Of a DNA stretch of 24,179 nt, positions 9,346-23,008 are shown one piece after another. Under the pieces are notes generated by a model. It was given only the letters and a program-made list of their open reading frames with translations. It did not search any database and was not told the DNA's origin. The translations under genes and the position numbers were made by a program. The DNA is from a virus (taxonomy: Duplodnaviria > Heunggongvirae > Uroviricota > Caudoviricetes), in the IMG/VR virus record IMGVR_UViG_2711768048_000001; one strand, 5' to 3'. How positions within the stretch are numbered: position 1 is the stretch's first letter; each line of letters opens with the position of its first letter.

Positions 9346-9520
9346 GTGTGCGTTTCTCCTGCTCTATCCTGTTTGCCTGACTGACCAGCAAGGGAATTTC
9401 ACTGATCGGCATATTCAGCAATTCGAAGGGATTAATGCGCCAGTAGCTGGCGCAGTCAAAGAAGCGATCAGTGAGGTATTCAGCCGTCAGGCCTGGAGGA
9501 AAAAACCAGCCACAAGCCAC
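9338..9520 (-). CDS. -1 frame extension of the tail assembly chaperone (GT-like frameshift product, C-terminal part)
   Basis: This ORF overlaps the 3' end of the chaperone ORF in the -1 frame and ends 4 nt inside the tape-measure start. The slippery heptamer lies in the overlap. Confidence 0.6.
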   Translation of the reverse strand: MACGWFFPPGLTAEYLTDRFFDCASYWRINPFELLNMPISEIPLLVSQANRIEQEKRTHG

Positions 9521-9756
9521 GCCGCTGCATTCAGGTCTGCCGGAGACATCTGGTCGACAGAGCTTTGCGGCACTTTCGCCAGCCGCACAATGTATTTCGA
9601 CACCACATGCGCCAGAAGTCTGACGGACTCATCCTGATTCATCTGGTAGGGATACCCCAGCTCGCGGACATCTTTCCCGGTGGGCTCATCAAACTCCAGT
9701 ACGGAGAGTGTCTCGCCATGAGCGGTAATCGGTTTCTTTAACTCAAGCTCTTTCAT
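9487..9756 (-). CDS. Tail assembly chaperone (Mu gp41 / lambda G analogue)
   Basis: 89 aa between the tail tube and tape-measure genes; carries the slippery site near its 3' end. Confidence 0.65.
   Translation of the reverse strand: MKELELKKPITAHGETLSVLEFDEPTGKDVRELGYPYQMNQDESVRLLAHVVSKYIVRLAKVPQSSVDQMSPADLNAAAWLVAGFFLQA
9499..9505 (-). other. Putative -1 programmed frameshift slippery heptamer T_TTT_TTC
   Basis: Minus strand reads …GCT GGT TTT TTC CTC CAG GCC TGA in frame 0; after a -1 slip it continues …FFPPGLTAEYL… into ORF 9338..9520. Confidence 0.55.
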
Positions 9757-10112
9757 TACTGGTAATCCCCTTCTTCACCGTGGAACTCAAGATCGACCGT
9801 GCCTTCTTCGGCATTATGGTTCGCTTCGCCGTGCAGCCAGGCAGACGACAGTACATAGACCTGACCGTTCGCCAGCTCGGCAGTGATGGTCATCTCATCA
9901 GACGAGGTGATTTTGCTCACCGGAAAATTCTTCGGCACCTTGAAGGTCCCTTTGACATAAGGCGCACGGTGAGTTTCCTTGCGGTCCACTGAACCGTCCA
10001 GGCCGATGATGTCATCATTGACCGTCCTGTTCATGGGCACCTCAATGCCGCCGGTCAGCGATAGCTGCTGACCGTCAATTTTGAAATAACAGGTTCCCCC
10101 GATACGGGCCAT
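9756..10112 (-). CDS. Tail tube protein (Mu gpM-like)
   Basis: 118 aa immediately downstream of the sheath gene, with overlapping start/stop. Confidence 0.7.
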   Translation of the reverse strand: MARIGGTCYFKIDGQQLSLTGGIEVPMNRTVNDDIIGLDGSVDRKETHRAPYVKGTFKVPKNFPVSKITSSDEMTITAELANGQVYVLSSAWLHGEANHNAEEGTVDLEFHGEEGDYQ

Positions 10113-11608
10113 TATGCGGACTCCTCTGAATACTGAAGACGGAACTGGTTAACCACGGCAAAGACACGCAACTGGTTAACATAGTCAGGCGGGAACAGCG
10201 TGTTCAGGCGGTTCGGATCGCTGGCATCACGCTCCACAACCAGGTACTTCTTAAACAGTTCGTAGTTTTCCACGATCCCCGCACGCTCAAGCTGACGGTA
10301 GGTTGCCAGCAGTTCCCCTTTGATCACCGCCGGGGTGACAATCGCCTGACCGGGACCAAAGCGGGTACCGTCACTGGCAAGCTTGTGACGCCCGTACTTA
10401 CTGGTAATGACAGATTTCAATTTGCGCAGTACATACGCGCTGGTATGCAGAGTCTCACTGTCTAGGTAGCTGTTATCCGCAACCCCGTAAGCGTTTTTCC
10501 TGTACGTGGTGACATCACGCTGAATGCGCAGTACCCCGCTTTCGACATACGCCGTTGCCACGCCATGAGACAGCAGGGTCTGTTGTTCGGTCATCGTGAA
10601 CCGTTTCCCCTTCGGCGCAGGCAGCATACCCACCAGCTCACCGGTCTGCGTGGGACGTGCCGGATCGTTGCGAATAAACACCGCTGCGCGGGCGGTACGG
10701 CTTGCCGCCAGTTCGTCGGCAGGCGTCTGGGTCTCTTTTTCGTACCCCGCCAGGGTAATGTGCTGCTGATTAAACTGGTCACCTGCGGTCACCAGTTCTG
10801 ACAGCGTGCCGATCTTTGCCGTATACACATGACCATACAGCTGACGCGCATAGCTCCAGCGACCACTGGTATCGTTCATCTCGGTCACCAGCGTGTTAAC
10901 GGAGGCCGTGTCGTTGAACGGCAGGCCGATATAATCAAACGGCTCATCCGCCATTGCAGCCACCGCGCCGGTGAGAACCGGAGCACCCGTACCGGCGGTA
11001 CCCGTCGCCACGGCAATCTGTACGCCCGCTGGCAGCACTTCGCCCCCACCAAAGCCGTAGTAATTGAGGCTGACAGGAATTTCATTCCCGCAAAGCCCCT
11101 TATGACGCGCGGTCAGTGTGACCACGCCTGCCGAAGATGAAGCCGTAAACGGCAGGGCCGGAACGGCATTGATGGCATCTTTGATACTGCTGGCAATCGT
11201 CGTGACGTTATCGCCGTTGGTCACCGGAGCCTGCACGCGGGTACGTCCCACATAGACATTCACCGTGCCGGTTTCGGTTGCCTCCCCGGTCACCGTCAGC
11301 GTAACCGTTGCCGCCGCGCCTGTGGATTCAGGAACGGCAATCACATACAGCTCGCCAAACGGGTCGGTCTGGCGATAAGCCTCGACCATACGCGCCAGCT
11401 GACTTCCCGCACCACAAATCTGGCGTGCATAGTCTGCCGACGGCATCAGTACCAGACTGTTGGCAACAATCTCTGCACCGTTATTGGCATGACCAATCAG
11501 CAGCGATGCTCCGCTGTCCTGTGCAGTATTCGCCGCCTGGTTATCCATTTCCGCATAAAACAGCGGAACCAGCGTATTCGACGGAATGGTGTTAAAGCTT
11601 ATCGTCAT
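10112..11608 (-). CDS. Contractile tail sheath protein (Mu gpL-like)
   Basis: 498 aa; size and position upstream of tube, chaperone and tape-measure genes. Confidence 0.8.
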   Translation of the reverse strand: MTISFNTIPSNTLVPLFYAEMDNQAANTAQDSGASLLIGHANNGAEIVANSLVLMPSADYARQICGAGSQLARMVEAYRQTDPFGELYVIAVPESTGAAATVTLTVTGEATETGTVNVYVGRTRVQAPVTNGDNVTTIASSIKDAINAVPALPFTASSSAGVVTLTARHKGLCGNEIPVSLNYYGFGGGEVLPAGVQIAVATGTAGTGAPVLTGAVAAMADEPFDYIGLPFNDTASVNTLVTEMNDTSGRWSYARQLYGHVYTAKIGTLSELVTAGDQFNQQHITLAGYEKETQTPADELAASRTARAAVFIRNDPARPTQTGELVGMLPAPKGKRFTMTEQQTLLSHGVATAYVESGVLRIQRDVTTYRKNAYGVADNSYLDSETLHTSAYVLRKLKSVITSKYGRHKLASDGTRFGPGQAIVTPAVIKGELLATYRQLERAGIVENYELFKKYLVVERDASDPNRLNTLFPPDYVNQLRVFAVVNQFRLQYSEESA

Positions 11609-11762
11609 CGGTGTTCACCTTTTTATTCACGCGCCGGATATCACCCGCTGCTTCACGGCGCAGCCAGTAGTTGTTCTCGTCAACATTTCGCCCTTCGGCG
11701 GGCAAAAGGTCGCCGCGGGCAGGATCAGGAACTGACCGCCCTTTAACAGGTTTGACAAACAT
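11592..11762 (-). CDS. Small basic protein (56 aa) upstream of the sheath gene, unknown function
   Basis: Not in the supplied track (below its size cut-off). ATG at 11762 preceded by GAGGA with a 5-nt spacer; stop overlaps the sheath start by 17 nt. Translation MFVKPVKGRSVPDPARGDLLPAEGRNVDENNYWLRREAAGDIRRVNKKVNTDDKL. Confidence 0.4.
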   Translation of the reverse strand: MFVKPVKGRSVPDPARGDLLPAEGRNVDENNYWLRREAAGDIRRVNKKVNTDDDKL

Positions 11763-11770
11763 GAGGATCC

Positions 11771-12331
11771 TCAGGAAGGAAGGGTTATTTCGGTGTGATG
11801 TTCGATATCGCCGTCAGGCCCGTTACCGGGCTCGAGATAATCAACATCAATCGCCAGCGTTTGCAGTTCATCCAGACTGTTCAGATCATCCTGCTGGCGG
11901 GTATCGTCTTCAGTCAGCTCGCTGATGACCGAAAAATCGAACTGATAAATCAGCTCATGACGATTCAGATCCAGCAGCGTGCCGCCGTCATAGGTAATCG
12001 GGTTACCGCACGCCTCCGGGTTCCAGCCCAGCAGGGCCTTAAAGAGCATCTGCCGGACATCGTCCACCACATCATACGAAGCAAACTGACCGCGCTCATC
12101 ACGCCCGTTACTCAGTATGACAACCACGGAGAAGCCCTCTTTCAGCTCCTGCCAGTAGTCGGTCTGGCTTTTGTTTTCTCCCGGAGAGTCATCACCCGGT
12201 ACCACATACGCCGCCGGGAGTCTCAGCTTTCCGACCTCCGGCAGATTTTTGAACTGTGCCGCGCCTGCCACCCGGTTTTCAAAATACGGGCAGCGGGCAC
12301 GCAGCGCAGCAATAACAGGCGTCAGTTTCAT
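11771..12331 (-). CDS. Tail completion / neck protein (exact family uncertain)
   Basis: 186 aa between the head-tail connector genes and the sheath. Confidence 0.45.
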   Translation of the reverse strand: MKLTPVIAALRARCPYFENRVAGAAQFKNLPEVGKLRLPAAYVVPGDDSPGENKSQTDYWQELKEGFSVVVILSNGRDERGQFASYDVVDDVRQMLFKALLGWNPEACGNPITYDGGTLLDLNRHELIYQFDFSVISELTEDDTRQQDDLNSLDELQTLAIDVDYLEPGNGPDGDIEHHTEITLPS

Positions 12332-12834
12332 CTGTGTCGTCGCTCCGGCTTCAGTGATTTACGCAATTCCCGCGCCAGAAAATAGCGTGTCCAGCTGCGG
12401 TTCTTTTCAAGCGTTTCCACCATGAAGTTATTACGTGGAGCCAGTCGCCAGCCGCTGCCACCGGATGCACCACGATGATGACTGCGACGACGTTTTGCCC
12501 CTCGCCTCACGCCATAGAACAAAAAAGCCGGATAAAAATCACCGGTGATACGGCGGTTTCCCTCTCCATTACGCTGGTTAGGGGCTATACGTGCCATAAA
12601 ACCAGGGCGATGTTTACTGGCTCTGGGTACCATGTAACCAATCGAACGAGCCAGGCGTCCGGTCTGATAACCGGGGTTTTCACCCGGTGCCGACCGCGCA
12701 CGGCGCATCACCAGCCGACGGGCATCACGCATATGACGCTGACCAATCGTGACAAACGCCCGCCGGACACGGGCGCGGTTAAAGCGCATCTCCGCGGGCT
12801 GCTGAAAATCAACGTGCAAAAAGGAAGTCGTCAT
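12328..12834 (-). CDS. Head-tail joining / tail component protein (HK97 gp10-like, tentative)
   Basis: 168 aa, very basic, within the connector block; start overlaps the upstream gene. Confidence 0.4.
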   Translation of the reverse strand: MTTSFLHVDFQQPAEMRFNRARVRRAFVTIGQRHMRDARRLVMRRARSAPGENPGYQTGRLARSIGYMVPRASKHRPGFMARIAPNQRNGEGNRRITGDFYPAFLFYGVRRGAKRRRSHHRGASGGSGWRLAPRNNFMVETLEKNRSWTRYFLARELRKSLKPERRHR

Positions 12835-13219
12835 TGTTGCCTCCGTGACTCTGCCTACATTCGCCCAGCTCCGTACACTCCAGCAGCAGAAAGCGCCGCG
12901 CCCCGTTCAGATCGCGCTGACGTTTCACCCGGTACACACTGTCACCGCAGACCACCTCATAATCAGCGGTGATCCCCCGGCGGTAACGAATGGTGATGTA
13001 ATGGGTGATGGCGTCCCCGGTCTGCGCGGTTTCCTGCCAGGTGGTGGCACTGGTCTGGATAACCTTCGCCCATGTCCGGAACGTAACCGGGTATTGAGGC
13101 TCCACGCCAAAGTTATCCGCGGGCATATCCACCCGCAGGCGGATCAGGACGCGTTTATTCAGTTCACCGGGGTCCGGCAGAATGTAGGTTGCGCTGGTCT
13201 GCGCCTGACGAATTTTCAT
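12809..13219 (-). CDS. Head closure / head-tail adaptor protein
   Basis: 136 aa in the conserved connector position downstream of the gp6-like gene. Confidence 0.5.
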   Translation of the reverse strand: MKIRQAQTSATYILPDPGELNKRVLIRLRVDMPADNFGVEPQYPVTFRTWAKVIQTSATTWQETAQTGDAITHYITIRYRRGITADYEVVCGDSVYRVKRQRDLNGARRFLLLECTELGECRQSHGGNNDDFLFAR

Positions 13220-13539
13220 TGCGGAAAGTACCTGTACGGGCCGACAAGCCAGCCAAAACTCTGCGGCATGTCGAGTTTCTCCACTTCCGTAACCGACGAG
13301 CGGTTTTCGTAAAAATGGCTGATAAGCATCAGCATCCCCAGACGAATATCATCCGGCAGGTGCAGCCCGTCCGGATCGCTGTCCGGAATGGTTTCATCCG
13401 GTGCATAGAGCTTCCGGTTCAGATACGTTTCCGTCCGCTTTTGTGCCGCACATGCCAGCAGTTGCAGATGGCGGTCATCAGTATCGAAATCCTCATCCAG
13501 CCGGAGTTGGGCTTTAATCTCTTCCATTGTCAGAAGCAT
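13216..13539 (-). CDS. Head-tail connector protein (HK97 gp6-like)
   Basis: 107 aa, acidic, typical size and position after the capsid gene. Confidence 0.5.
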   Translation of the reverse strand: MLLTMEEIKAQLRLDEDFDTDDRHLQLLACAAQKRTETYLNRKLYAPDETIPDSDPDGLHLPDDIRLGMLMLISHFYENRSSVTEVEKLDMPQSFGWLVGPYRYFPQ

Positions 13540-13541
13540 AC

Positions 13542-13742
13542 TCAGCCCTCTTTACTGGTCGTGGCTTTTTTCTCTTTTGCCGCTTTACTGCTTTTTGCAC
13601 TGATTCCGCGCTCTGCTAACCCGGCCTGAAGTGCAATCTCCTGCACCCGGGCAGGAAGCGCCCCGTCGTCATACTCACCGGCCTGAATGACCTCAACACG
13701 CATACCGTCCGGTGACCATTTCAGATCTTGTTTCAGGATCAT
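13542..13742 (-). CDS. Small hypothetical head-associated protein (66 aa)
   Basis: ORF between the capsid and connector genes with a Lys-rich C-terminus. Confidence 0.4.
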   Translation of the reverse strand: MILKQDLKWSPDGMRVEVIQAGEYDDGALPARVQEIALQAGLAERGISAKSSKAAKEKKATTSKEG

Positions 13743-13791
13743 GATTCTTCACCCGTCAGAACAGGGGGCGCGGTTCCGCGCCCCTGAGTGA

Positions 13792-14997
13792 TCACGCCGC
13801 TGCAATCTTCAGCAGTTTGATGGCCTGCGAATCGACCAGCATCCCGCCGGTGCGCTTGGTGGTATAAAAACCGACAAACGGTTTATTGGTGTACGGGTCA
13901 CGCAGAATGCGGGTGCCGATACGGTCAACGATGGTGTAACCCCGTTTGAAGTTACCAAATGCAATGGCTTTCGCATCAGCGGCGATATCCGGCATCTGTT
14001 CGTTTTCAGCGATACCGTAACCCGCCAGAGAGGACGGCTGCCCCAGTTCCAGCCCCGGACGCCACAGATAGTTACCCTCGCTGTCTTTCAGCAGACGGAT
14101 GGCAAACAGGCTGTTGTTGTTCATCATGAACTTCGCGCCAGTGCGGTGTGCCTTACGCAGCGTGTAAATCAGTTTGATAATGGCGTCTGCGGTCACCGCG
14201 GTCGCTTCGCCGGATACAATATGCTGAAGTTTGCCGAACGCCCGGACCTTGTCGGTTTCATCAGTGGATTCATACGCCAGGAACCCTTTCGGCTTCTTGG
14301 TGCCATCGCCTGAGGTAAAGGCAATTTCTTCCTGTTCGGCAAATTCGGTTGCCAGCTCGCTGTTGATCCAGGCCTCCACGTTGAAGAAGGCATCGTCCAG
14401 CATTTTCTGGGTAGCCTGCGGGTTGCCGTAGATTTCCCCCATGAGAGGTTCAATCAGCTCCAGTCTGGAGGTGGCAGTCTGGGATCGCGTATCCGTTTCC
14501 CCCACCCATCCGGAAGCCGTACCGCCCAGATTCACCAGTTTTTTGTAGTCGGAACCGCCAACGGTGATCACCGTGGCTTCCTGACGCATCACCACTTCAT
14601 CTTTCAGCAGGTTAAGAATGTTGCGATCCAGTTCTTCCGGCACGGCGTAGCCACCGTCTTCATCGGTACCCACCTGCAATGCCTTACGCTCCAGATCGCG
14701 CAGACCGTCTTCACGGCCTTTACGCAGGAAGCCCACAAACGCCTCTTTATGCTCGGTGGCCAGTTTATTTTGCGCTCCACCTGCCGGACGTTTCAGCTCA
14801 AGCAGCTCTTTTTCAAGGTCGCTTTTGAGATTTTCCAGCTCGCTGAGTTTCCCGTTCAGGGTTTCCACCTGCCCGGCAAGCTTGCCTTTTTCCTGCTCAA
14901 TCGCATCCACGCGCTTGTCGTTCTTTGCTTTGAAGTCGTCAAACTTCTGCTGCAGCTCCTGCGCGACCTGTTCGACATCTTTAATATCAACCGCCAT
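13792..14997 (-). CDS. Major capsid protein, HK97 family (with N-terminal coiled-coil delta/scaffold domain)
   Basis: 401 aa; the first ~100 residues are strongly coiled-coil (…KLSELENLKSDLEKELLELKR…), followed by an HK97-fold-like body; directly downstream of the prohead protease. Confidence 0.8.
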   Translation of the reverse strand: MAVDIKDVEQVAQELQQKFDDFKAKNDKRVDAIEQEKGKLAGQVETLNGKLSELENLKSDLEKELLELKRPAGGAQNKLATEHKEAFVGFLRKGREDGLRDLERKALQVGTDEDGGYAVPEELDRNILNLLKDEVVMRQEATVITVGGSDYKKLVNLGGTASGWVGETDTRSQTATSRLELIEPLMGEIYGNPQATQKMLDDAFFNVEAWINSELATEFAEQEEIAFTSGDGTKKPKGFLAYESTDETDKVRAFGKLQHIVSGEATAVTADAIIKLIYTLRKAHRTGAKFMMNNNSLFAIRLLKDSEGNYLWRPGLELGQPSSLAGYGIAENEQMPDIAADAKAIAFGNFKRGYTIVDRIGTRILRDPYTNKPFVGFYTTKRTGGMLVDSQAIKLLKIAAA

Positions 14998-15011
14998 CGT
15001 ATTTCTCCTGA

Positions 15012-15659
15012 TTAGAAGTTCAGATTTTTCAGTGCATTCAGTGCAGAGCCCACATCCTCAGCGTCGCGCAGGGACAGTGCGCCATAGCCCCCGGCCATGA
15101 ATGCTTTGGCCTGGGTACGGGAGAGTCCGACATCACGCAGGACTCTTTCGATTTTTTTCTGTTCGGGGATTTCCCCGCGGGCCAGTGCGTTCTTGACGTC
15201 GCTGATCCGCGCCTCGTCGTTAGACGGGAACGTCACCAGGCTGACTTCCCAGAGGTCGATTTCTTTCAGCAGAAAGGCTTCTTTGCTCCGGTCGTATTCC
15301 CAGTCTTTCAGGACGTACCCAATAGAAAGGCCGGTTAACGAACCGGCCTTCATGTGTGCATGTGCGCGTTTTGCCAGGGGATCATCATCAATAAGCAACC
15401 GTCCCCTGACGTAAAGCCCGACATCGTCTTCCTTCATTTCGGTGTAAACACCGATGGGTTCATCCATGCGGTGCTGCCAGAGCAGTGCAGGTAACGCTTT
15501 TCGGTCACTCCACGCCCGCAGGGAAGCAGCAAATGCCCCGGACATCACCACATCATCGTGGCTGTCCTTTACACCAAAGACGGAGCCATACCCTTCAAAC
15601 TCACCGGAGTCACTGACAGATTTCAGACTCAGCGGTACATCAAGACGTTGTTTCGTCTG
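15012..15659 (-). CDS. Prohead maturation protease (HK97 gp4 family)
   Basis: The track ORF runs 15012..15698, but the ATG at 15659 (MQTKQRL…) has an AAGGA ribosome-binding site and the ATG at 15698 has none. Sits between portal and capsid genes. Confidence 0.7.
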   Translation of the reverse strand, partial: QTKQRLDVPLSLKSVSDSGEFEGYGSVFGVKDSHDDVVMSGAFAASLRAWSDRKALPALLWQHRMDEPIGVYTEMKEDDVGLYVRGRLLIDDDPLAKRAHAHMKAGSLTGLSIGYVLKDWEYDRSKEAFLLKEIDLWEVSLVTFPSNDEARISDVKNALARGEIPEQKKIERVLRDVGLSRTQAKAFMAGGYGALSLRDAEDVGSALNALKNLNF

Positions 15660-16881
15660 CATTGGCGTTATCCTTCTGCTTACCGGCCTTACTGCCATCG
15701 GAGGGTTTCGTGGTCATGTTCATCGGTGTGAGATAGACATCACCACCGGGACGCGGATTCATATCTTCCAGGTCGCGGCAGTCATTGGGAGAGTAAATTC
15801 CCCAGTTGATCCCGGTGGCGTAGGCTTCAAAACGGGACTTCATATCCCCGCGCAGTAACGCCCCGGCGTTAAATTTGGCGTAATAAACGCCCTGCTTACT
15901 TTTTCGTACCAGTCCGGTGTTGATCCGCTGTTCGATGCGGGTCAGATACGGCACCAGTGAATAGTTGATAAATCCCAGCCCCAGCTCTTCGATATTGTTG
16001 AAGGTGGCGCGATCGGTGTTCTGCACCATGTGCAACGGCACCCGGAACAGACGACAGATTTCTTCAAGCTGAAACTTGCGGGTTTCCAGGAACTGGCTGT
16101 CCTCGGCGTTCAGCGCCATCGACTTCCAGTCCAGCCCCATCTCAAGGATCATCGGGCGGTGAGCATTGCCAAGCCCGGTGTGACGCTCCTCAAAATCTTT
16201 CTTCAGGCGCTCATAAGCCTGATCTGACAGCGTCTGCTCTGTACGCAACACACCCGACGTCACCGCGCCATTGCTGAACAGTCTGGCCCCGTGCTCTTCG
16301 GTCGCTGCCGCCAGCGATATTGCCTCGCGGGCATAGGCGATGGGATTCAGCCCCACCAGTCCGTCCAGCGTCAGCGTGCGCACATGCCAGATATCCTCCT
16401 GGCTCAGTACATCCGTGGAGCCATCCGGGAATGTGACCTGATAGATCGGCTCCCAGCTACTGTTAAGCTTCGGTACCACACAGCCGGGATCGACGGGCAG
16501 CAGTTCAGCCACTTCGCCAAATGCTTTCACTTTGTAGGCGTAAAAGTTTCCCCGCAGGCACAGACAGGTGACCACCAGCTCCCAGAACTCCTGCGGCGTC
16601 ATATAGCCATTGGGATGCGTGGAGATCAGCTTATGCAGACGTTCGCCAGTGGCTCTCTGCTTCAGGCTGCCGTTCAGGTGATACAGGTTGCAGGGCAACA
16701 TCCCGACCGACTCCGCCAGCACCCTGACACAGGAAAAAACCGCCGTCAGTCGCATGGCCCGCTGGCTGCTGATCTGTTTTCCGGTATAGGTGTCGTAGGA
16801 CAACCCGATAGCATCCGCCAGCTCTGCTGGCGTGGTCACCGGTGCGTCACTTTTTCGTTGAAATAATCCCGAAAAGAACAC
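15640..16881 (-). CDS. Portal protein (HK97 family)
   Basis: 413 aa downstream of the large terminase; GTG start preceded by GGAGGT. Confidence 0.8.
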   Translation of the reverse strand: MFFSGLFQRKSDAPVTTPAELADAIGLSYDTYTGKQISSQRAMRLTAVFSCVRVLAESVGMLPCNLYHLNGSLKQRATGERLHKLISTHPNGYMTPQEFWELVVTCLCLRGNFYAYKVKAFGEVAELLPVDPGCVVPKLNSSWEPIYQVTFPDGSTDVLSQEDIWHVRTLTLDGLVGLNPIAYAREAISLAAATEEHGARLFSNGAVTSGVLRTEQTLSDQAYERLKKDFEERHTGLGNAHRPMILEMGLDWKSMALNAEDSQFLETRKFQLEEICRLFRVPLHMVQNTDRATFNNIEELGLGFINYSLVPYLTRIEQRINTGLVRKSKQGVYYAKFNAGALLRGDMKSRFEAYATGINWGIYSPNDCRDLEDMNPRPGGDVYLTPMNMTTKPSDGSKAGKQKDNANADETTS

Positions 16882-17063
16882 TATTTACCTCCGCCGACAG
16901 ACGACTGTGTACGGTCGAGATATCGCGCCACCAGCCACGACCAGAACAGACACAACGCCCCGACAACAACAAACCCCGCCGGGGGATAAATCAGCCAGGC
17001 ACCATACGCCAGCAAAAGCGCCCCCAGCACGCCCACCAGAGGCGCGAGAATCAGCATGATCAT
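16881..17063 (-). CDS. Small hydrophobic protein (60 aa, two predicted transmembrane helices) between terminase and portal
   Basis: [49 protein letters not shown]…; ATG with GAGGT upstream; its stop overlaps the portal start codon by 1 nt. Confidence 0.45.
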
Positions 17064-17074
17064 AATTACCTCAG

Positions 17075-18808
17075 TTAAAGCGAGCGGATCCCATAGGACT
17101 CAATGTGGTCAGACAGCGTGTCTTCTTTCTCGTACAGCATGGCTCTGCCAACCGCCATAATCAGCGCAACTGCACCATCGATTTTGTTTTCCGCCTGCTC
17201 TTTGACGGGCTTCACCACATCATCGTTACCTGGCATGTTTTTGCCGACCACATTGCCGATACACCAGGTCATGATGGGATTGCCGTCATGATGAAAGCGT
17301 CCCGATTCAATCGCTGCCTCCAGCTCTTTCATCGGGTCGGACATATTGGCGAAGTTCTGGACGATAGTAACGGGATTCAGGTCTTCATCAGCAAGGTCAT
17401 GTGACAGCCCGGTCGCTCCGAAAGGGTCGATGGGTGACTCACTGACCGGGCTGATTTTGTTCGCCGCTTTGGCCTCTTCGAGGATGTAGCGATAATCCAC
17501 CTCTGCACCATCGGTAACGGTCAGAACGCCCATTTCCACCCATTTCTGAAAGCGTTCGGCTGTCCGTCGATCTTCATTTTTCTCGACGCTGTACACCGTG
17601 TCATACGGTACCCAGAAACGCGGGGCCACACTGTAGTAATGCGTTTTACCGTCAATCTCGCGGGTATAAAGTCGCGCCATGCTGTTCATATCCAGCTTAC
17701 GCGCCAGGTCAAAGGCCAGAATGCACGGCTGCCCCTCGAACTGCTCAAGGGTCAGTGATTTATCCTCGCAGCTCTGCCAGCTCACCAGGTTGAAATACGC
17801 CGAACGTGCCGACACCCAGATATTGAGGTGTTTTGTTTTAAAGACGTTTGCCAGACGGGCGTTATTTTTCGCACGCTGCTGCTGACTTAACAAAAATTCG
17901 CGATAAACCGACACGCCAATATTTGGATTGGCTTTTTCCAGCACCTGCGGGTCGGTCCAGTCGTCACCTTCATCAACGGTATAGATGATCCCGAACAGTT
18001 CATCGTTGGGCACCGAGCCGTTGAGCATCTCGATGACTTCCCGCCGCTTGTCGTAGCACGGCCCCTCAATGTTGTACCCGGCGGTAGTGATAGCCCACAT
18101 CAGTGGCTGACGTCGCGCCCCCATCCCGGTAAGCATCGTGGTGTAAAGCGCATCTGTGGCGTGCTCGTGATATTCATCCACCACCGCACAGTGGGGTGAT
18201 GAACCATCACCGGGGTTACCGATCAGCGGTTCAAAACGCGCACCATCCTCCGGACGGTTCATGTTTGAGGCGTTAACCTCAATCCCGAACGCTTCCGTCA
18301 GCATGGGTGTGCGTTTACACATCAGTCTTGCCGGACGAAAGACTTCCCATGCCTGTTTCTCCGTCGTGGCACCGGAATACACTTCCGCGCCGAACTCGTT
18401 ATCACAGGCAAAACAATACAGGGCGACACCGGCAGAGATTGCCGATTTGCCGTTCTTACGGGGGATTTCGGTATACACCTCACGGAAGCGGCGCAGCCGG
18501 GAGCCTTTATTGACCCAGCCAAACGCGCAGCAGATCACAAAGAGCTGCCACGGCTCCAGCGTGATGGGCATCCTCTTAAATGCCCACTCACCCTTGGTGT
18601 GCGGCAACAGCTGAATAAATTTGGCGGCCCGTTCAGCCAGGTCCTTGTCGAAGCGGTAACGAAACGACTTACTTTTTTCCGCCATCAGGTCATCAAGATG
18701 GCGCTGGCAGGCCTGAATCACAAACTGGCAGGCCACAATCTTTCCGCGCACGACATCCCGGGCATACTGATTGGCAGCATTTACGTTGGGGTAAGATTTC
18801 CGGCTCAT
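17075..18808 (-). CDS. Terminase large subunit
   Basis: 577 aa directly after the small terminase, with ATPase and nuclease domain organisation typical of TerL. Confidence 0.85.
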
Positions 18809-18821
18809 GATTCGATGATTT

Positions 18822-19316
18822 TCAGATTGTCAGAAACGGGTTAGTGGCTTTCTTCTTCCCCGCCAGGCCAATCAGACGCTGGCGGCTGCTGGGGTCGAGT
18901 CCGAGCATTGCCCCCGTGCTGCTCATCTCGGACTCCTGTTCTTTTTTGGCGGTCAGCTCCGGATTTTTGACCATGCCACCCATTGCACCGGTGATGGTGT
19001 TACCCTGTCTGGCAATATTTTTCACGGCACGTCGCCAGAACTCATAGGCCACACACCACCGCTCAAGTACCGCCAGGTCAGTCACGCACAGCAGGCCCTG
19101 ACCGCAGAGTTCTTTGGTTGTCAGTTGCCACATGATCGTGGCGAGAGGGAGATCTTCTTCAGCGAACCACTCCGGTGGCTCAACACCTTTGATGGGCGTA
19201 AAAACAGGTTCATCTTTATTCAGGGCTCGCTTGCCGGGGTTTCCGGCCAGCGCCTTGCGCGCCGTTGGCTTGGGGCGACGCCCGGAACGCCCCGCCGTTC
19301 CAGCCATATGCGGCAC
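18822..19316 (-). CDS. Terminase small subunit (P27 family)
   Basis: Start is probably the ATG at 19307 ([14 protein letters not shown]…); the track ORF begins at a GTG at 19316. Basic N-terminus, immediately upstream of TerL. Confidence 0.75.
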
Positions 19317-19357
19317 TCCAGGTTAAATTTCATTTTTCGCGGGTATAAAAAAACGAT

Positions 19358-19406
19358 GGGGCGGGCAGTCCGGAAGACGTCAGGTCACAGAGATTTGACC
19401 CGCCCC
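19358..19406. other. Candidate cos region: inverted GGGGCGGG repeats flanking a 33-bp spacer that contains GACGTC
   Basis: ggggcggg at 19358..19365 and its reverse complement cccgcccc at 19399..19406, in the HNH-terS intergenic region where HK97-type phages place cos; an A-tract lies to the left. Confidence 0.35.
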
Positions 19407-19432
19407 TCCCCTCAGGCAGTTGAGAATCATTA

Positions 19433-19783
19433 TCACTTCAACCGTTCACGGGCCGTCTTCGCCTTATGACACGGCCAGCACAGACTCTGCAGATTACAGT
19501 CGGCATCAGTGCCGCCATGCGCTTTAGGGATGATGTGGTCAACGGTTTTCGCCTCACGTACCACACCACCACGCAGACATAACTGACACAGGCCTTTGTC
19601 ACGCTTCAGTACACGTTCACGGATAGCATCCCATTTCGAACCGTAGCCGCGCTGATGACGGGACTGGCCTGGCTTGTATTGCCTCCAGCCTTCGCTTTTG
19701 TGGCTTTCGCAGTAGCCTGACGGGTCTGTGGTGGTATGGCGGCAGCCACGAACACGGCAGGCTTTTGGGATTCGTGATGGCAT
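19433..19783 (-). CDS. HNH endonuclease (packaging-associated)
   Basis: C-terminal HNH motif (…TVDHIIPKAHGGTDADCNLQSLCWPCHKAK…) plus an upstream Cys/His cluster. Likely start is the ATG at 19783 with a GGAG ribosome-binding site; the track ORF extends to 19882. Confidence 0.8.
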   Translation of the reverse strand: MPSRIPKACRVRGCRHTTTDPSGYCESHKSEGWRQYKPGQSRHQRGYGSKWDAIRERVLKRDKGLCQLCLRGGVVREAKTVDHIIPKAHGGTDADCNLQSLCWPCHKAKTARERLK

Positions 19784-19870
19784 ATGTACTCCAATGAAGA
19801 AGCCACCGACATAGCCTCCTCCATTCATCGTGAAACTATTTTCATCTACCCAGTAATGAATTCTTTGTAG

Positions 19871-19925
19871 AGTTGTGATCAATACAACTCACTAATGGAG
19901 AGGCTTGTCCAACACGTTGGACAAG
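19871..19925. repeat. Two adjacent perfect inverted repeats (gagttgt-N7-acaactc and cttgtccaac-ac-gttggacaag)
   Basis: Read directly at 19871..19891 and 19904..19925; no convincing U-tract on either strand. Confidence 0.6.
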
Positions 19926-20005
19926 TTTCCTGTTTGATTTACTGGACACTATAGAAGGACAGAATGCCTTCATCACTCGAATAACATCAATTAAGGAGGT
20001 TCAAC

Positions 20006-20128
20006 ATGTTTCATTCCACAAATCATCAGGCTGTAATTATGGCTGCATCAGCTTGTGCCACAGACCTTTTCCGCTTCACTTTGAGCCTGATTCATTTCTA
20101 CCTGACCGGCTCGCCTCTATCTTTTTAA
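20006..20128 (+). CDS. Small hydrophobic ORF (40 aa) with a consensus Shine-Dalgarno sequence, unknown function
   Basis: AAGGAGG at 19993..19999, 6-nt spacer, ATG at 20006. Translation MFHSTNHQAVIMAASACATDLFRFTLSLIHFYLTGSPLSF. Same strand as bor and upstream of it. Confidence 0.4.
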   Translation: MFHSTNHQAVIMAASACATDLFRFTLSLIHFYLTGSPLSF

Positions 20129-20308
20129 TCCCCGCTTTATCCAAATTGCATTGCCAGAATGCCGACAACAGACTGACATTCAAATCCTGACTACCTCCAA
20201 TAGTCTGACCGTACACCTATATAGTTTTAATTTTCATCAATCCATTTAACTATCGTTTAATTGTTGTCACATAGGATTCTGCCGTTTTTAACAATGCAGG
20301 ATAATAAG

Positions 20309-20602
20309 ATGAAAAAAATGTTGTTTTCTGCCGCTCTGGCAATGCTTATTACAGGATGTGCTCAACAGACGTTTACTGTTGGAAACAAACCGACAGCAGT
20401 AACACCAAAGGAAACCATCACCCATCATTTCTTCGTTTCGGGAATTGGACAGGAGAAAACTGTTGATGCAGCCAAAATTTGTGGCGGCGCAGAAAATGTG
20501 GTTAAAACAGAAACCCAGCAAACATTCGTAAATGGATTGCTCGGTTTTATTACTTTAGGCATTTATACTCCGCTGGAAGCGCGGGTGTATTGCTCACAAT
20601 AA
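20309..20602 (+). CDS. bor: Bor lipoprotein (lambda Bor / Iss family, serum-resistance moron)
   Basis: 97 aa MKKMLFSAALAMLITGCAQQTFTV… with lipobox LITGC; close to lambda Bor as I remember it; convergent with Rz, as in lambda. Confidence 0.9.
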   Translation: MKKMLFSAALAMLITGCAQQTFTVGNKPTAVTPKETITHHFFVSGIGQEKTVDAAKICGGAENVVKTETQQTFVNGLLGFITLGIYTPLEARVYCSQ

Positions 20603-20613
20603 TTGCATGAGTT

Positions 20614-20631
20614 GCCCATCGATATGGGCAG
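20614..20631. terminator. Hairpin between the convergent bor and Rz genes (possible bidirectional terminator)
   Basis: tgcccat-cgat-atgggca; overlaps the last Rz codons; no strong U-tract. Confidence 0.25.
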
Positions 20632-20633
20632 CG

Positions 20634-21095
20634 CTATCTGCACTGCTCATTAATATACTTCTGGGTTCCTTCCAGTTGTTTTTGCATAGTGATCAGCCTC
20701 TCTCTGAGGGTGAAATAATCCCGTTCAGCGGTGTCTGCCAGTCGGGGGGAGGCTGCATTATCCACGCCGGAGGCGGTGGTGGCTTCACGCACTGACTGAC
20801 AGACTGCTTTGATGTGCAACCGACGACGACCAGCGGCAACATCATCACGCAGAGCATCATTTTCAGCTTTCGCATCAGCTAACTCCTTCGTGTATTTTGC
20901 ATCGAGCGCAGCAACATCACGCTGACGCATCTGCATGTCAGTAATTGTCGAGTTCGCCAGCTTCAGTTCTCTGGCATTTTTGTCGCGCTGGGCTTTGTAG
21001 GTAATGGCGTTATCGCGGTAATGATTAACAGCCCATGACAAGCAAACGATGATGCAGATAACCAGAGCGGAAATAATCGCGGTTACTCTGCTCAT
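20634..21095 (-). CDS. Rz: Rz i-spanin
   Basis: 153 aa, essentially the lambda Rz sequence ([48 protein letters not shown]…). Confidence 0.9.
20693..20875 (-). CDS. Rz1: Rz1 o-spanin lipoprotein, embedded in the +1 frame of Rz
   Basis: 60 aa [47 protein letters not shown]… with a lipobox and proline-rich region, as in lambda Rz1. Confidence 0.85.
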
Positions 21096-21568
21096 ACCTC
21101 AATCTCTCTGACCGTTCCGCCTGCTTCTTTGAATTTTGCAATCAGGCTGTCAGCCTTATGCTCGAACTGACCATAACCAGCGCCCGGCAGTGAAGCCCAG
21201 ATATTGCTGCAACGGTCAATTGCCTGACGAATATCACCGCGATCAATCATCGGTAAAGCGCCACGCTCTTTAATCTGCTGCAATGCCACAGCGTCTTGGC
21301 TTTTCGGAGAGAAGTCTTTCAGGCCAAGCTGCTTACGATAGGAATCCCACCAACGGGAAAGAAGCTGGTAGCGCCCGGCTGCTGTTGATTTGAGTTTTGG
21401 GTTTAGCGTGACAAGTTTGCGAGGGTGATCGGAGTAATCAGTAAATAGCTCTCCGCCTACAATGACGTCATAACCATGATTTCTGGTTTTCTGCCGTCCG
21501 TTATCCGTTCCTTCTGACCATGCCACCATATCGAGGAAAGCCTTACGCTGAGGATTAAGATTTTGCAT
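21092..21568 (-). CDS. R: Endolysin R (lambda-type lytic transglycosylase)
   Basis: 158 aa; …[64 protein letters not shown]… matches lambda R except for the first ~7 residues. Confidence 0.9.
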
Positions 21569-21872
21569 TTTTCACCCCTGTCAGTCGTTCCCAGAAGTAC
21601 GTCAGTGCAACCGAACCCATCGCACCACTAATCCCCGCTGTCGCGAGAATCATGTAAATACTGAATCCACTTTCGATGCTGATCAGGCCACCAATAACAC
21701 CGGTGAATCCTGATACCACTATCTGAGCCAGAGCATTTATCCAACTCCACGTTGCTTTACTCTGCTTCACATCTATCAGGTAGCGGACCAGACCGCCCCA
21801 ACCTGCGATGATCAGCAAAACGAGCCAGAACGCTCCGGCAAGGCTCTCTTTTTCGTGCATATGAATAGCCAA
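21555..21872 (-). CDS. Holin (not the lambda S sequence; 2-3 predicted transmembrane segments)
   Basis: Sits at the holin position immediately upstream of and overlapping R; hydrophobic segments with a charged C-terminus. The track start is TTG at 21872; an in-frame ATG at 21860 (MHEKESL…) is an alternative. Confidence 0.6.
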   Translation of the reverse strand: MAIHMHEKESLAGAFWLVLLIIAGWGGLVRYLIDVKQSKATWSWINALAQIVVSGFTGVIGGLISIESGFSIYMILATAGISGAMGSVALTYFWERLTGVKNAKS

Positions 21873-21974: not shown

Positions 21975-22000
21975 AATAAAAAAGCCAGCATGTAGCTGGC
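21975..22000 (-). terminator. Rho-independent terminator, candidate tR' (end of a 6S-like short late transcript)
   Basis: Minus strand GCCAGC-tacat-GCTGGC followed by TTTTTTATT, about 140 nt downstream of the candidate pR'. Confidence 0.5.
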
Positions 22001-22122
22001 AACAGAGGGTTAAGCAATATCAACTCAACAGCTGAAGACACCCTGTCTGGGGTAGGTTGGAAGGCTACTCACCGTCCAGAAACAGAAAAGCCCAAAGTTT
22101 TAAACCTCGGGCTTGAATTTGG

Positions 22123-22151
22123 ATTACTGCCAGTGCGTACAACATTGGCAA
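22123..22151 (-). promoter_or_regulatory. Candidate late promoter pR' (-35 TTGCCA, 17 bp, -10 AGTAAT) with adjacent qut-region hairpin
   Basis: Minus strand TTGCCA (plus 22146..22151), 17-bp spacer, AGTAAT (plus 22123..22128), about 30 bp downstream of the Q-like stop; a hairpin follows at about 22089..22113. Confidence 0.35.
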
Positions 22152-22181
22152 AATATCAGATTTACACGAAATATATGCTTT

Positions 22182-22871
22182 TTAATCCAGTTTTGCAATA
22201 CTTTGCTGTGAAAATGTCGTCTTTTGTTTTGAACGTGTTTTCGTTAAAAGCAATAAAGCTTGGCTATCAAGCTGTAGAAAAATGTGCTTCATTGCAACCC
22301 AGCGTTCAGTAAATGTCTCAGACCAGTTTTTTGATGTCACTCCCACCAGTGATGCCAGCTCCTGGTATTCATAGGTCTTACGCCCTGCCAGCTCGTTCTT
22401 CACATCCTGTGCCGCCAGCCAGATCAACTTCTTCAAACGTTCCAGTGTCTTACCTGCAATTTTTCTGGTACCCAACAGAGTCTTAAACTCGCTCCATGCC
22501 CACTGCGTTATGGCAACCTGATGCTCCCAGCGAACACTTTCGCTGTAACTCCACAGCAACCACGCTTTCTGATGTTCATCAAGAGACAGAACCGCGCGGC
22601 GCCATGAAGAGGTTGAGAACTCAACCTGGCTGACCAGTGCAATGGATGAACCTTTTGCGTACGACTGCTTACCGGAAATCGGCGGATTATCCAGCGTAAT
22701 CATCCTGCCAGTTACCTCATCCAGAATGCGCGGCTTCTTTCGTTTGTATGTACCAGTATCAAATTGAGCATGCTCCAGCCAGGCTTCAAGCTGGCCTTTC
22801 GTTACTCCGCTCAAATCAGCGGTAGCCACCATGAGTTGCTCGCGAACATACTGTAAATATTGGATATTCAT
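22182..22871 (-). CDS. Putative late-gene antiterminator Q (non-lambda type; assigned by synteny)
   Basis: 229 aa in the slot between ylcG/rusA and the lysis cassette. It contains no cysteine, so it cannot be a lambda-Q-type zinc-finger protein. Confidence 0.45.
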   Translation of the reverse strand: MNIQYLQYVREQLMVATADLSGVTKGQLEAWLEHAQFDTGTYKRKKPRILDEVTGRMITLDNPPISGKQSYAKGSSIALVSQVEFSTSSWRRAVLSLDEHQKAWLLWSYSESVRWEHQVAITQWAWSEFKTLLGTRKIAGKTLERLKKLIWLAAQDVKNELAGRKTYEYQELASLVGVTSKNWSETFTERWVAMKHIFLQLDSQALLLLTKTRSKQKTTFSQQSIAKLD

Positions 22872-23008
22872 GCGGCAGCTCCTTTCAGTGTTTTGGCGTA
22901 ATTCTTCAGTATTCGGTAATCGGTCAAAACAGAACCGGGAAAACGATATAAGCGCAGGCGCACCCAGCGGCGGCGAAGACGTTCTGCCATATAAGACTCA
23001 AACATCAT
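22868..23008 (-). CDS. ylcG: YlcG-like small protein (46 aa)
   Basis: Not in the track. ATG overlaps the rusA stop; its stop overlaps the Q ATG. Translation [46 protein letters not shown]. Same position as DLP12 ylcG. Confidence 0.6.

Follow-up and report, generated by a model that had tools for sequence, protein, structure and literature searches.

A probable phage 82-type late-gene antiterminator Q and its predicted late promoter region in a mosaic lambdoid prophage

The window, by which we mean the entire 24,179-nt stretch of DNA analysed here, carries a late control and lysis region whose minus-strand order is ninB, a Cys-rich ORF, rusA, ylcG, Q, a 310-bp non-coding leader, holin S, lysozyme R and Rz/Rz1 (Table 1). 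The Cys-rich ORF between ninB and rusA occupies the position of orf96/ybcO in phage 82 and is likened to that gene by position alone. The overall layout agrees with those of phage 82, Escherichia phage PhiR47_2 and the DLP12 prophage. Furthermore, the ATGA overlap between the stop codon of ylcG and the start codon of Q implies translational coupling of the two genes. The same arrangement is annotated in phage 82 (orf45 at 1496-1636, Q at 1633-2322), in PhiR47_2 and in E. coli genomes, where the upstream product is named 'YlcG family protein'. HK97-like packaging modules typically have an HNH endonuclease ORF just before the small terminase gene, as is present here.

The packaging, head and contractile-tail genes (window positions ~1500-21500) are 97-98% identical to those of the Shigella phages SfII, SfI, SfIV and SfV, and they show the same level of identity to Escherichia phage vB_EcoM-689R6. 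The stretch from Q to the lysis genes matches PhiR47_2. With a nin/Q region that resembles phage 82 and structural genes of the SfII/SfV kind, the element is a mosaic that joins 82-type late control to an SfV-like myovirus virion module.

Table 1. Features of the late control, lysis and adjoining region of the window, with the basis for each call
Feature	Position	Strand	Basis
ylcG/orf45-like ORF, 46 aa, stop overlaps Q start (ATGA)	22868..23008	-	ORF list
Q gene, phage 82-type late-gene antiterminator (by sequence), 229 aa, no Cys	22182..22871	-	ORF, PF06323, PHROG 304, phage 82 identity
pR' -35 hexamer TTGCAA, inside last Q codons	22193..22198	-	promoter scan; invariant in window, PhiR47_2, 434, Gifsy-1
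17-nt pR' spacer AACTGGATTAAAAAGCA, predicted location of the Q-binding element (QBE)	22176..22192	-	literature and conservation
pR' -10 hexamer TATATT	22170..22175	-	promoter scan
Predicted +1; transcript begins AAA	22163	-	spacing from -10 hexamer
Sigma70-dependent pause element, TG-extended -10-like TGaTATTTT (TGATATTTT) at +6..+14, then GCC at +15..+17	22147..22158	-	published descriptors
Predicted pause/Q-loading site, +25 (U)/+26	22138..22139	-	U at +25
First intrinsic terminator, 12-bp hairpin 22114-22088 (+50..+76), U-rich tail TTCTGTTTCT to +86	22078..22114	-	terminator scan, MFE fold
Second intrinsic terminator GCCAGC-TACAT-GCTGGC + TTTTTTATT (RNA GCCAGC/GCUGGC + UUUUUUAUU), +164..+189	21975..22000	-	terminator scan
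Holin S, start at +292 from pR'	21555-21872	-	ORF, PhiR47_2 annotation
Lysozyme R	21092-21568	-	ORF, PhiR47_2 annotation
Rz	20634-21095	-	ORF, PhiR47_2 annotation
Rz1, embedded in Rz	20693-20875	-	ORF, PhiR47_2 annotation
bor-like lipoprotein gene, just after Rz on opposite strand	20261-20602	+	
HNH endonuclease ORF, directly upstream of small terminase gene	19433-19882	-	

An earlier note on this DNA had placed a 229-aa protein without Cys in the antiterminator (Q) slot, and both parts of that description hold. The ninB-rusA-ylcG-Q-leader-S-R-Rz/Rz1 order bears out the slot, a Python count over the protein returns zero Cys residues, and the ORF spans exactly 22182..22871 on the minus strand. 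It is the sole ORF at these coordinates in the ORF listing, opening with ATG, running for 229 codons and closing with TAA, and an AAAGGAG ribosome-binding site lies 7 nt 5' of its start codon. When translated on the plus strand, the same interval is full of stops. Several plus-strand ORFs of 41-59 aa overlap Q, and these were discarded as nothing supports them.

The protein matches the Pfam family PF06323 (Phage_antiter_Q) with an E-value of 1.2e-94 and a score of 316.5 bits, relative to a curated cut-off of 25, and residues 4-220 align to positions 1-217 of the 220-position profile. A match to PHROG 304, 'anti-termination protein Q-like', was likewise obtained (E = 2e-107), and a search of NCBIfam with the Q protein gave no match. 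PF06323 denotes the Q82 family, PF03589 the lambda-Q family and PF06530 the Q21 family (PMC9388147, PMC7171158). The founder of PF06323 is the Q protein of phage 82 (REGQ_BP82; GenBank X92588, CAA63332), which has the same length of 229 aa and is identical to the window protein at 220 of 229 residues (96%) without a gap; the two genes share 97.2% DNA identity. The nine substitutions that separate the proteins (I3T, M14I, V23A, D98E, A120T, Q204E, K211R, T218A and S224N) leave untouched every nearly invariant column of PF06323 (R10, A16, W104, Y109, W126, L152, Q155, W183, W191, D202 and L206). By these sequence comparisons, the product of 22182-22871 is a phage 82-type Q antiterminator, which is already known and ordinary.

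The protein is also rich in Trp (10 of 229 residues), and W104, W126, W183 and W191 are nearly invariant across PF06323, where they are accompanied by an invariant Y109 and by the nearly invariant R10 and D202. The conserved Trp residues may form a hydrophobic core or a surface that contacts RNA polymerase or DNA.

A promoter scan yields one minus-strand sigma70-type promoter, consisting of TTGCAA, 17 nt and TATATT, which overlaps the 3' end of Q. The transcript predicted to start at 22163 would have the 5' end AAAUCUGAUAUUUUGCCAAUGUUGUA, and the wild-type pR' transcript of phage 82 is reported to begin with AAA (PMC5001585). In phage 82, the QBE sits between the -35 and -10 elements of pR' (PMC4914094). 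The pause element of 82 pR' carries an extended -10 TG, is nearer to consensus than its lambda counterpart and is followed by GCC at +15-17, and RNA polymerase pauses at +25/+26, where position +25 is naturally a U (PMC5001585). Judged by its sequence, the window promoter agrees with every published descriptor of 82 pR' that we found, a comparison made with verbal descriptors and not with the published sequence. The phage 82 record X92588 ends at the Q stop codon.

Other phages with Q82-type proteins retain much of this region. The block TTGCAA-AACTGGATTAAAA...TATA(T/C)T...AAAT(C/T)TG(A/G)TAT is kept in PhiR47_2, phage 434 and Gifsy-1. Coding constraint cannot account for this conservation because the block is non-coding in Gifsy-1. 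Within the spacer, no base of AACTGGATTAAAA varies among four phages, Gifsy-1 included, that encode Q proteins with 70-96% identity to the window Q, and conservation would therefore place the exact bases of the QBE at this motif. One of these relatives is PhiR47_2, whose Q is 96% identical and whose leader is nearly identical, with both terminators included. Indeed, the second terminator is the same in the two elements base for base. Phage 434 carries a Q described as 'Q82-like' that shares 87% protein identity with the window Q, and its -35, spacer, -10 and pause block is conserved. However, its leader diverges after about +25, and both its first terminator and its downstream genes differ.

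Terminator-like sites are enriched in the 500-bp region that was scanned, with 5 found versus 0.8 expected. From its predicted hairpin and U-rich tail, the first terminator is the element that defines a leader RNA of ~80 nt.

Phage 82 itself shares with the window the upstream rusA gene, the orf45/ylcG gene with its ATGA overlap and the published pR' descriptors, whereas its phage backbone differs from the SfII/SfV-like myovirus structural genes found here. Antitermination by phage 82 Q has been reconstituted in vitro (PMC4914094, PMC5001585), and its activity depends on the QBE and on the sigma70 pause and is stimulated by NusA (PMC4914094). What the window shows directly is a gene of the Q82 family, nearly identical to Q82 itself, together with promoter, pause and terminator sequences at their respective positions. 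The 96% identity and the matching cis-elements suggest by analogy that Q binding, loading and antitermination would occur at this locus as well. We are nearly certain that the window gene is the late-gene transcription antiterminator Q of an 82-type module in a lambdoid prophage with SfII/SfV-like structural genes.

On the phage 82 model, RNA polymerase holoenzyme would initiate at pR', whose -35 element sits in the last codons of Q. At +6..+14, retained sigma70 would then rebind the TG-extended -10-like element, after which the complex would scrunch and pause at +25/+26, as has been described for sigma70 at the -10-like element of 82 pR' (PMC5001585). A QBE-bound Q, likely dimeric, would engage the paused complex and replace sigma region 4 at the beta-flap tip. 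NusA would aid this engagement, stabilizing it if the nascent transcript is still short. Both proteins would subsequently stay with the elongation complex, suppress pausing and shield about 10 additional nucleotides of the emerging RNA. The takeover of the beta-flap by a probable Q82 dimer, the role of NusA and the ~10-nt extension of RNA shielding all come from work on phage 82 (PMC4914094). Polymerase modified in this manner would be expected to read through the terminators at +50..+86 and +164..+189 into the S-R-Rz/Rz1, packaging and morphogenesis genes. Without Q, transcription would stop in the leader and produce an RNA of about 80 nt.

Genes of the Q82 type abound in E. coli chromosomes, and many of the prophages that carry them are cryptic, with DLP12 as an example. 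Perhaps the window gene could likewise be an inert relic of a defective prophage that serves no current function, but we regard this as improbable. The ORF is full length and free of frameshifts, its nearly invariant residues and its cis-elements are intact, and downstream of it the genes for lysis, packaging, head and tail appear as long, uninterrupted ORFs with 97-98% identity to SfII, SfI, SfIV and SfV.

It could also be imagined that the protein in the Q slot is a helix-turn-helix DNA-binding activator or repressor that acts otherwise than by antitermination. Its C-terminal part resembles a helix-turn-helix, a few Q82-family members weakly match helix-turn-helix Pfam models and a TetR chain, and the phage 434 homologue is labelled 'transcriptional activator/anti-terminator'. 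We nevertheless find this explanation scarcely credible, because the protein is 96% identical to a phage 82 Q whose antitermination activity has been reconstituted (PMC4914094, PMC5001585) and because a full set of pause and terminator elements adjoins the gene.

The absence of Cys bears on a different question, namely which Q family the protein belongs to. At an assumed Cys frequency of about 1.15%, taken as typical of E. coli proteins, ~7% of 229-aa proteins are expected to be devoid of this residue. Thus, the absence of Cys is by itself only mildly unusual and is not statistically remarkable. Regardless, phage 82 Q also has no Cys, and among the 120 closest clusters the count is zero in 64 and one in 46. 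Because phage 82 Q and most close relatives have either no Cys or one, the Cys-free state is a real inherited trait and not an accident. Distant members of PF06323 carry 2-8 Cys residues, which are concentrated in three alignment columns that elsewhere hold A, V, L, T or F, and no CxxC pattern was found among these Cys residues in the alignment columns. A lost zinc site in the distant members was therefore considered and rejected. The absence of Cys marks the 82 clade only and does not define the Q82 family as a whole.

Lambda Q carries two CxxC pairs (C118/C121 and C144/C147), and a protein that has no Cys cannot form a Cys4 zinc site of the lambda Q type. This argument rules out lambda Q, yet it leaves the family unnamed because distant PF06323 members carry 2-8 Cys. 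Profile searches supply the name. Neither PF03589 nor PF06530 matched the Q protein at E<=1, and both were absent among the 25 families listed, of 52 matched, when 64 Q82-family members were searched at E<=10. The positive controls performed as they should, with lambda Q matching PF03589 (E = 6e-58) and E. coli QuuD matching PF06530 (E = 3.5e-53). Insignificant hhalign probabilities were obtained when the Q82-family alignment was compared to the single lambda Q sequence (0.6%) and to the single QuuD sequence (0.05%). A search for relatives of lambda Q and Q21 on viral contigs listed 160 loci, essentially all of them ~100% identical to the queries, and these provided no diverse alignments.

The exclusion of a lambda-type zinc-finger Q by the earlier note is thus upheld, both by the absence of a PF03589 match and by the lack of any counterpart to the four lambda Q cysteines. 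Of the two remaining families it had put forward, the 82-like option stands, given the PF06323 match and the 96% identity to phage 82 Q, and the 21-like option falls with the absence of a PF06530 match. Its further alternative, a different late regulator, gives way to an 82-like Q, as the PF06323 match is full length. The Pfam search it had suggested as a check found this Q family, and no confident match to a non-regulatory family occurred. Descent from a lambda-type or phage 21-type Q that diverged past recognition and lost its zinc site is accordingly already refuted at the family level and is hardly conceivable in light of the absent PF03589 and PF06530 matches, the hhalign probabilities of 0.6% or lower, the missing cysteines and the 96% identity to the founder of a third family, given that a shared ancient fold is not the same as family membership.

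Such a fold does appear to be shared. The best PDB matches to an AlphaFold model of the Q protein are the lambda Q crystal structure, which ranks first, and AlpA (PDB entries 4MO1 and 7UBN for lambda Q and 7XYB for AlpA). As modelled, the protein has a helical core and a C-terminal helix-turn-helix that resemble the solved Q and AlpA structures, consistent with a Q-like antiterminator fold. A common Q fold has been proposed for lambda Q, Q21, AlpA and Q82 on the basis of published AlphaFold models, in which the zinc finger of lambda Q is an insertion (PMC9371919). Kinship at the level of predicted fold between a Q82-type protein and lambda Q is therefore already published. Searching PDB sequences, either with the Q protein alone or with a profile of 64 sequences, brought up nothing related to Q, and the link is made by fold comparison only. 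A Foldseek search of BFVD returned one named Q82-family member, and the remaining matches were unnamed or irrelevant.

At the sequence level, the lambda Q family (PF03589) has no detectable similarity to the window Q, and only lambda Q has the Cys4 zinc finger. The lambda pause also lies at +16/17, compared to +25 for the 82 type (PMC5001585). Q21 (PF06530) and AlpA likewise show no sequence similarity to the window Q, and Q21 acts without NusA (PMC12360218).

The sequence searches found no experimental Q82 structure in the PDB. Among the three Q families, this lack is peculiar to Q82, and any Q82 orthologue, including the protein encoded in the window, could serve to provide a structure. The literature leaves open whether Q82 acts as a closed nozzle, in the way of Q21 and lambda Q, or as an open, NusA-dependent shield (PMC9388147). 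A closed nozzle is argued against because Q82 loads onto complexes that have long RNA (PMC9388147).

The leader downstream of pR' has a possible relative of its own. The full Rfam model of isrJ (RF01393, positions 1-75) aligns to minus-strand positions 22166-22087, which reach from the start of the pR' transcript to the first terminator. The score of the window leader is 28.5 bits (E = 0.0016 on 301 nt), which lies below the gathering score of 37, and the true isrJ of Gifsy-1 scores 100 bits. The block common to the leader and isrJ is UGUAAAUCUGAUAU, which comprises the start region and the sigma70 pause element. isrJ is an Hfq-binding Salmonella sRNA, and it is encoded in Gifsy-1; its RNA is described with a Rho-independent terminator at the end (PMC4825925).

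In Gifsy-1, the same -35/spacer/-10 block is located just upstream of isrJ, and isrJ is downstream of a Q82-family gene. This gene encodes AntQ (STM2617, at the Salmonella IsrK/IsrJ locus), which is 70% identical to the window Q. The TTGCAA, AACTGGATTAAAA, TATATT and AAATCTGATA elements are kept along with a terminator hairpin, and there they constitute the promoter and the body of IsrJ. The two loci differ in that Q and the TTGCAA-AACTGGATTAAAA-TATATT promoter of Gifsy-1 (NC_010392, 2501-4121) are parted by a module comprising isrK (the c4-a1b1 target), C4 antisense RNA, orf45 and an antirepressor, and the window has no such insertion. We presume that this isrK/C4/orf45/antirepressor module resembles the P1 immI region.

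Homology between the leader and isrJ is supported despite the score of 28.5 bits because the same promoter block precedes the bona fide isrJ of Gifsy-1. Going by these sequence features, IsrJ appears to be a leader RNA that starts at a Q82-type late promoter and is terminated. It is an evenly balanced proposition that the ~80-nt RNA predicted to form without Q (+1 at 22163, end near 22080) is the E. coli counterpart of IsrJ, and that 'island-encoded sRNAs' of the IsrJ class are terminated leaders of Q82-type pR' promoters, in the manner of lambda 6S RNA. Such RNAs might even have dual functions, acting in cis as Q-loading leaders and in trans as regulators in lysogens. In the literature searched, IsrJ is described only as an sRNA, and its link to the pR' leader is not stated. 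If correct, this link suggests that certain 'sRNAs' of prophages arise as by-products of late promoters under Q control.

The Q gene and its leader are widespread. They were detected in 1450 of 5426 complete E. coli genomes, in 793 of these over at least 80% of their length, and the best match is 99.1% identical. Matched features in E. coli are annotated as 'bacteriophage antitermination protein Q' and 'YlcG family protein'. Members of the Q82 family also occur in 74 phage records, including 434, Gifsy-1, N15, PY54 and phiKO2. The window Q opens no new question because it represents textbook lambdoid biology present in roughly one in four complete E. coli genomes. For annotation purposes, Q82-type late-gene antiterminator is a safe name for the gene, and its neighbouring promoter, pause site and terminators can be entered alongside it.

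Two further sequence elements near pR' deserve mention. A -35-like hexamer, TTGCCA, is present at 22146-22151 on the minus strand (+13..+18), within the transcribed region, where it overlaps the end of the pause element. Together with AGTAAT located 17 nt downstream, it mimics a promoter. The name of a Roberts-lab plasmid, insofar as a name conveys this, cites a '-35-like' mutant of 82 pR'. TTGCCA-N17-AGTAAT (about 22151-22123) was dropped as a candidate for the late promoter, as only TTGCAA-N17-TATATT yields the AAA start, GCC at +15-17 and U at +25.

The second element, TTGCAATACTTTGC at 22193-22206 on the plus strand, fits the CII-box pattern TTGYN6TTGY. It lies on the strand opposite Q and overlaps the -35 hexamer of pR'. 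This pattern occurs 4 times in the window versus about 3 times expected, which is not significant by itself. In phage 434, the equivalent of the 22193-22206 site is annotated as a CII site with the -35 element of paQ.
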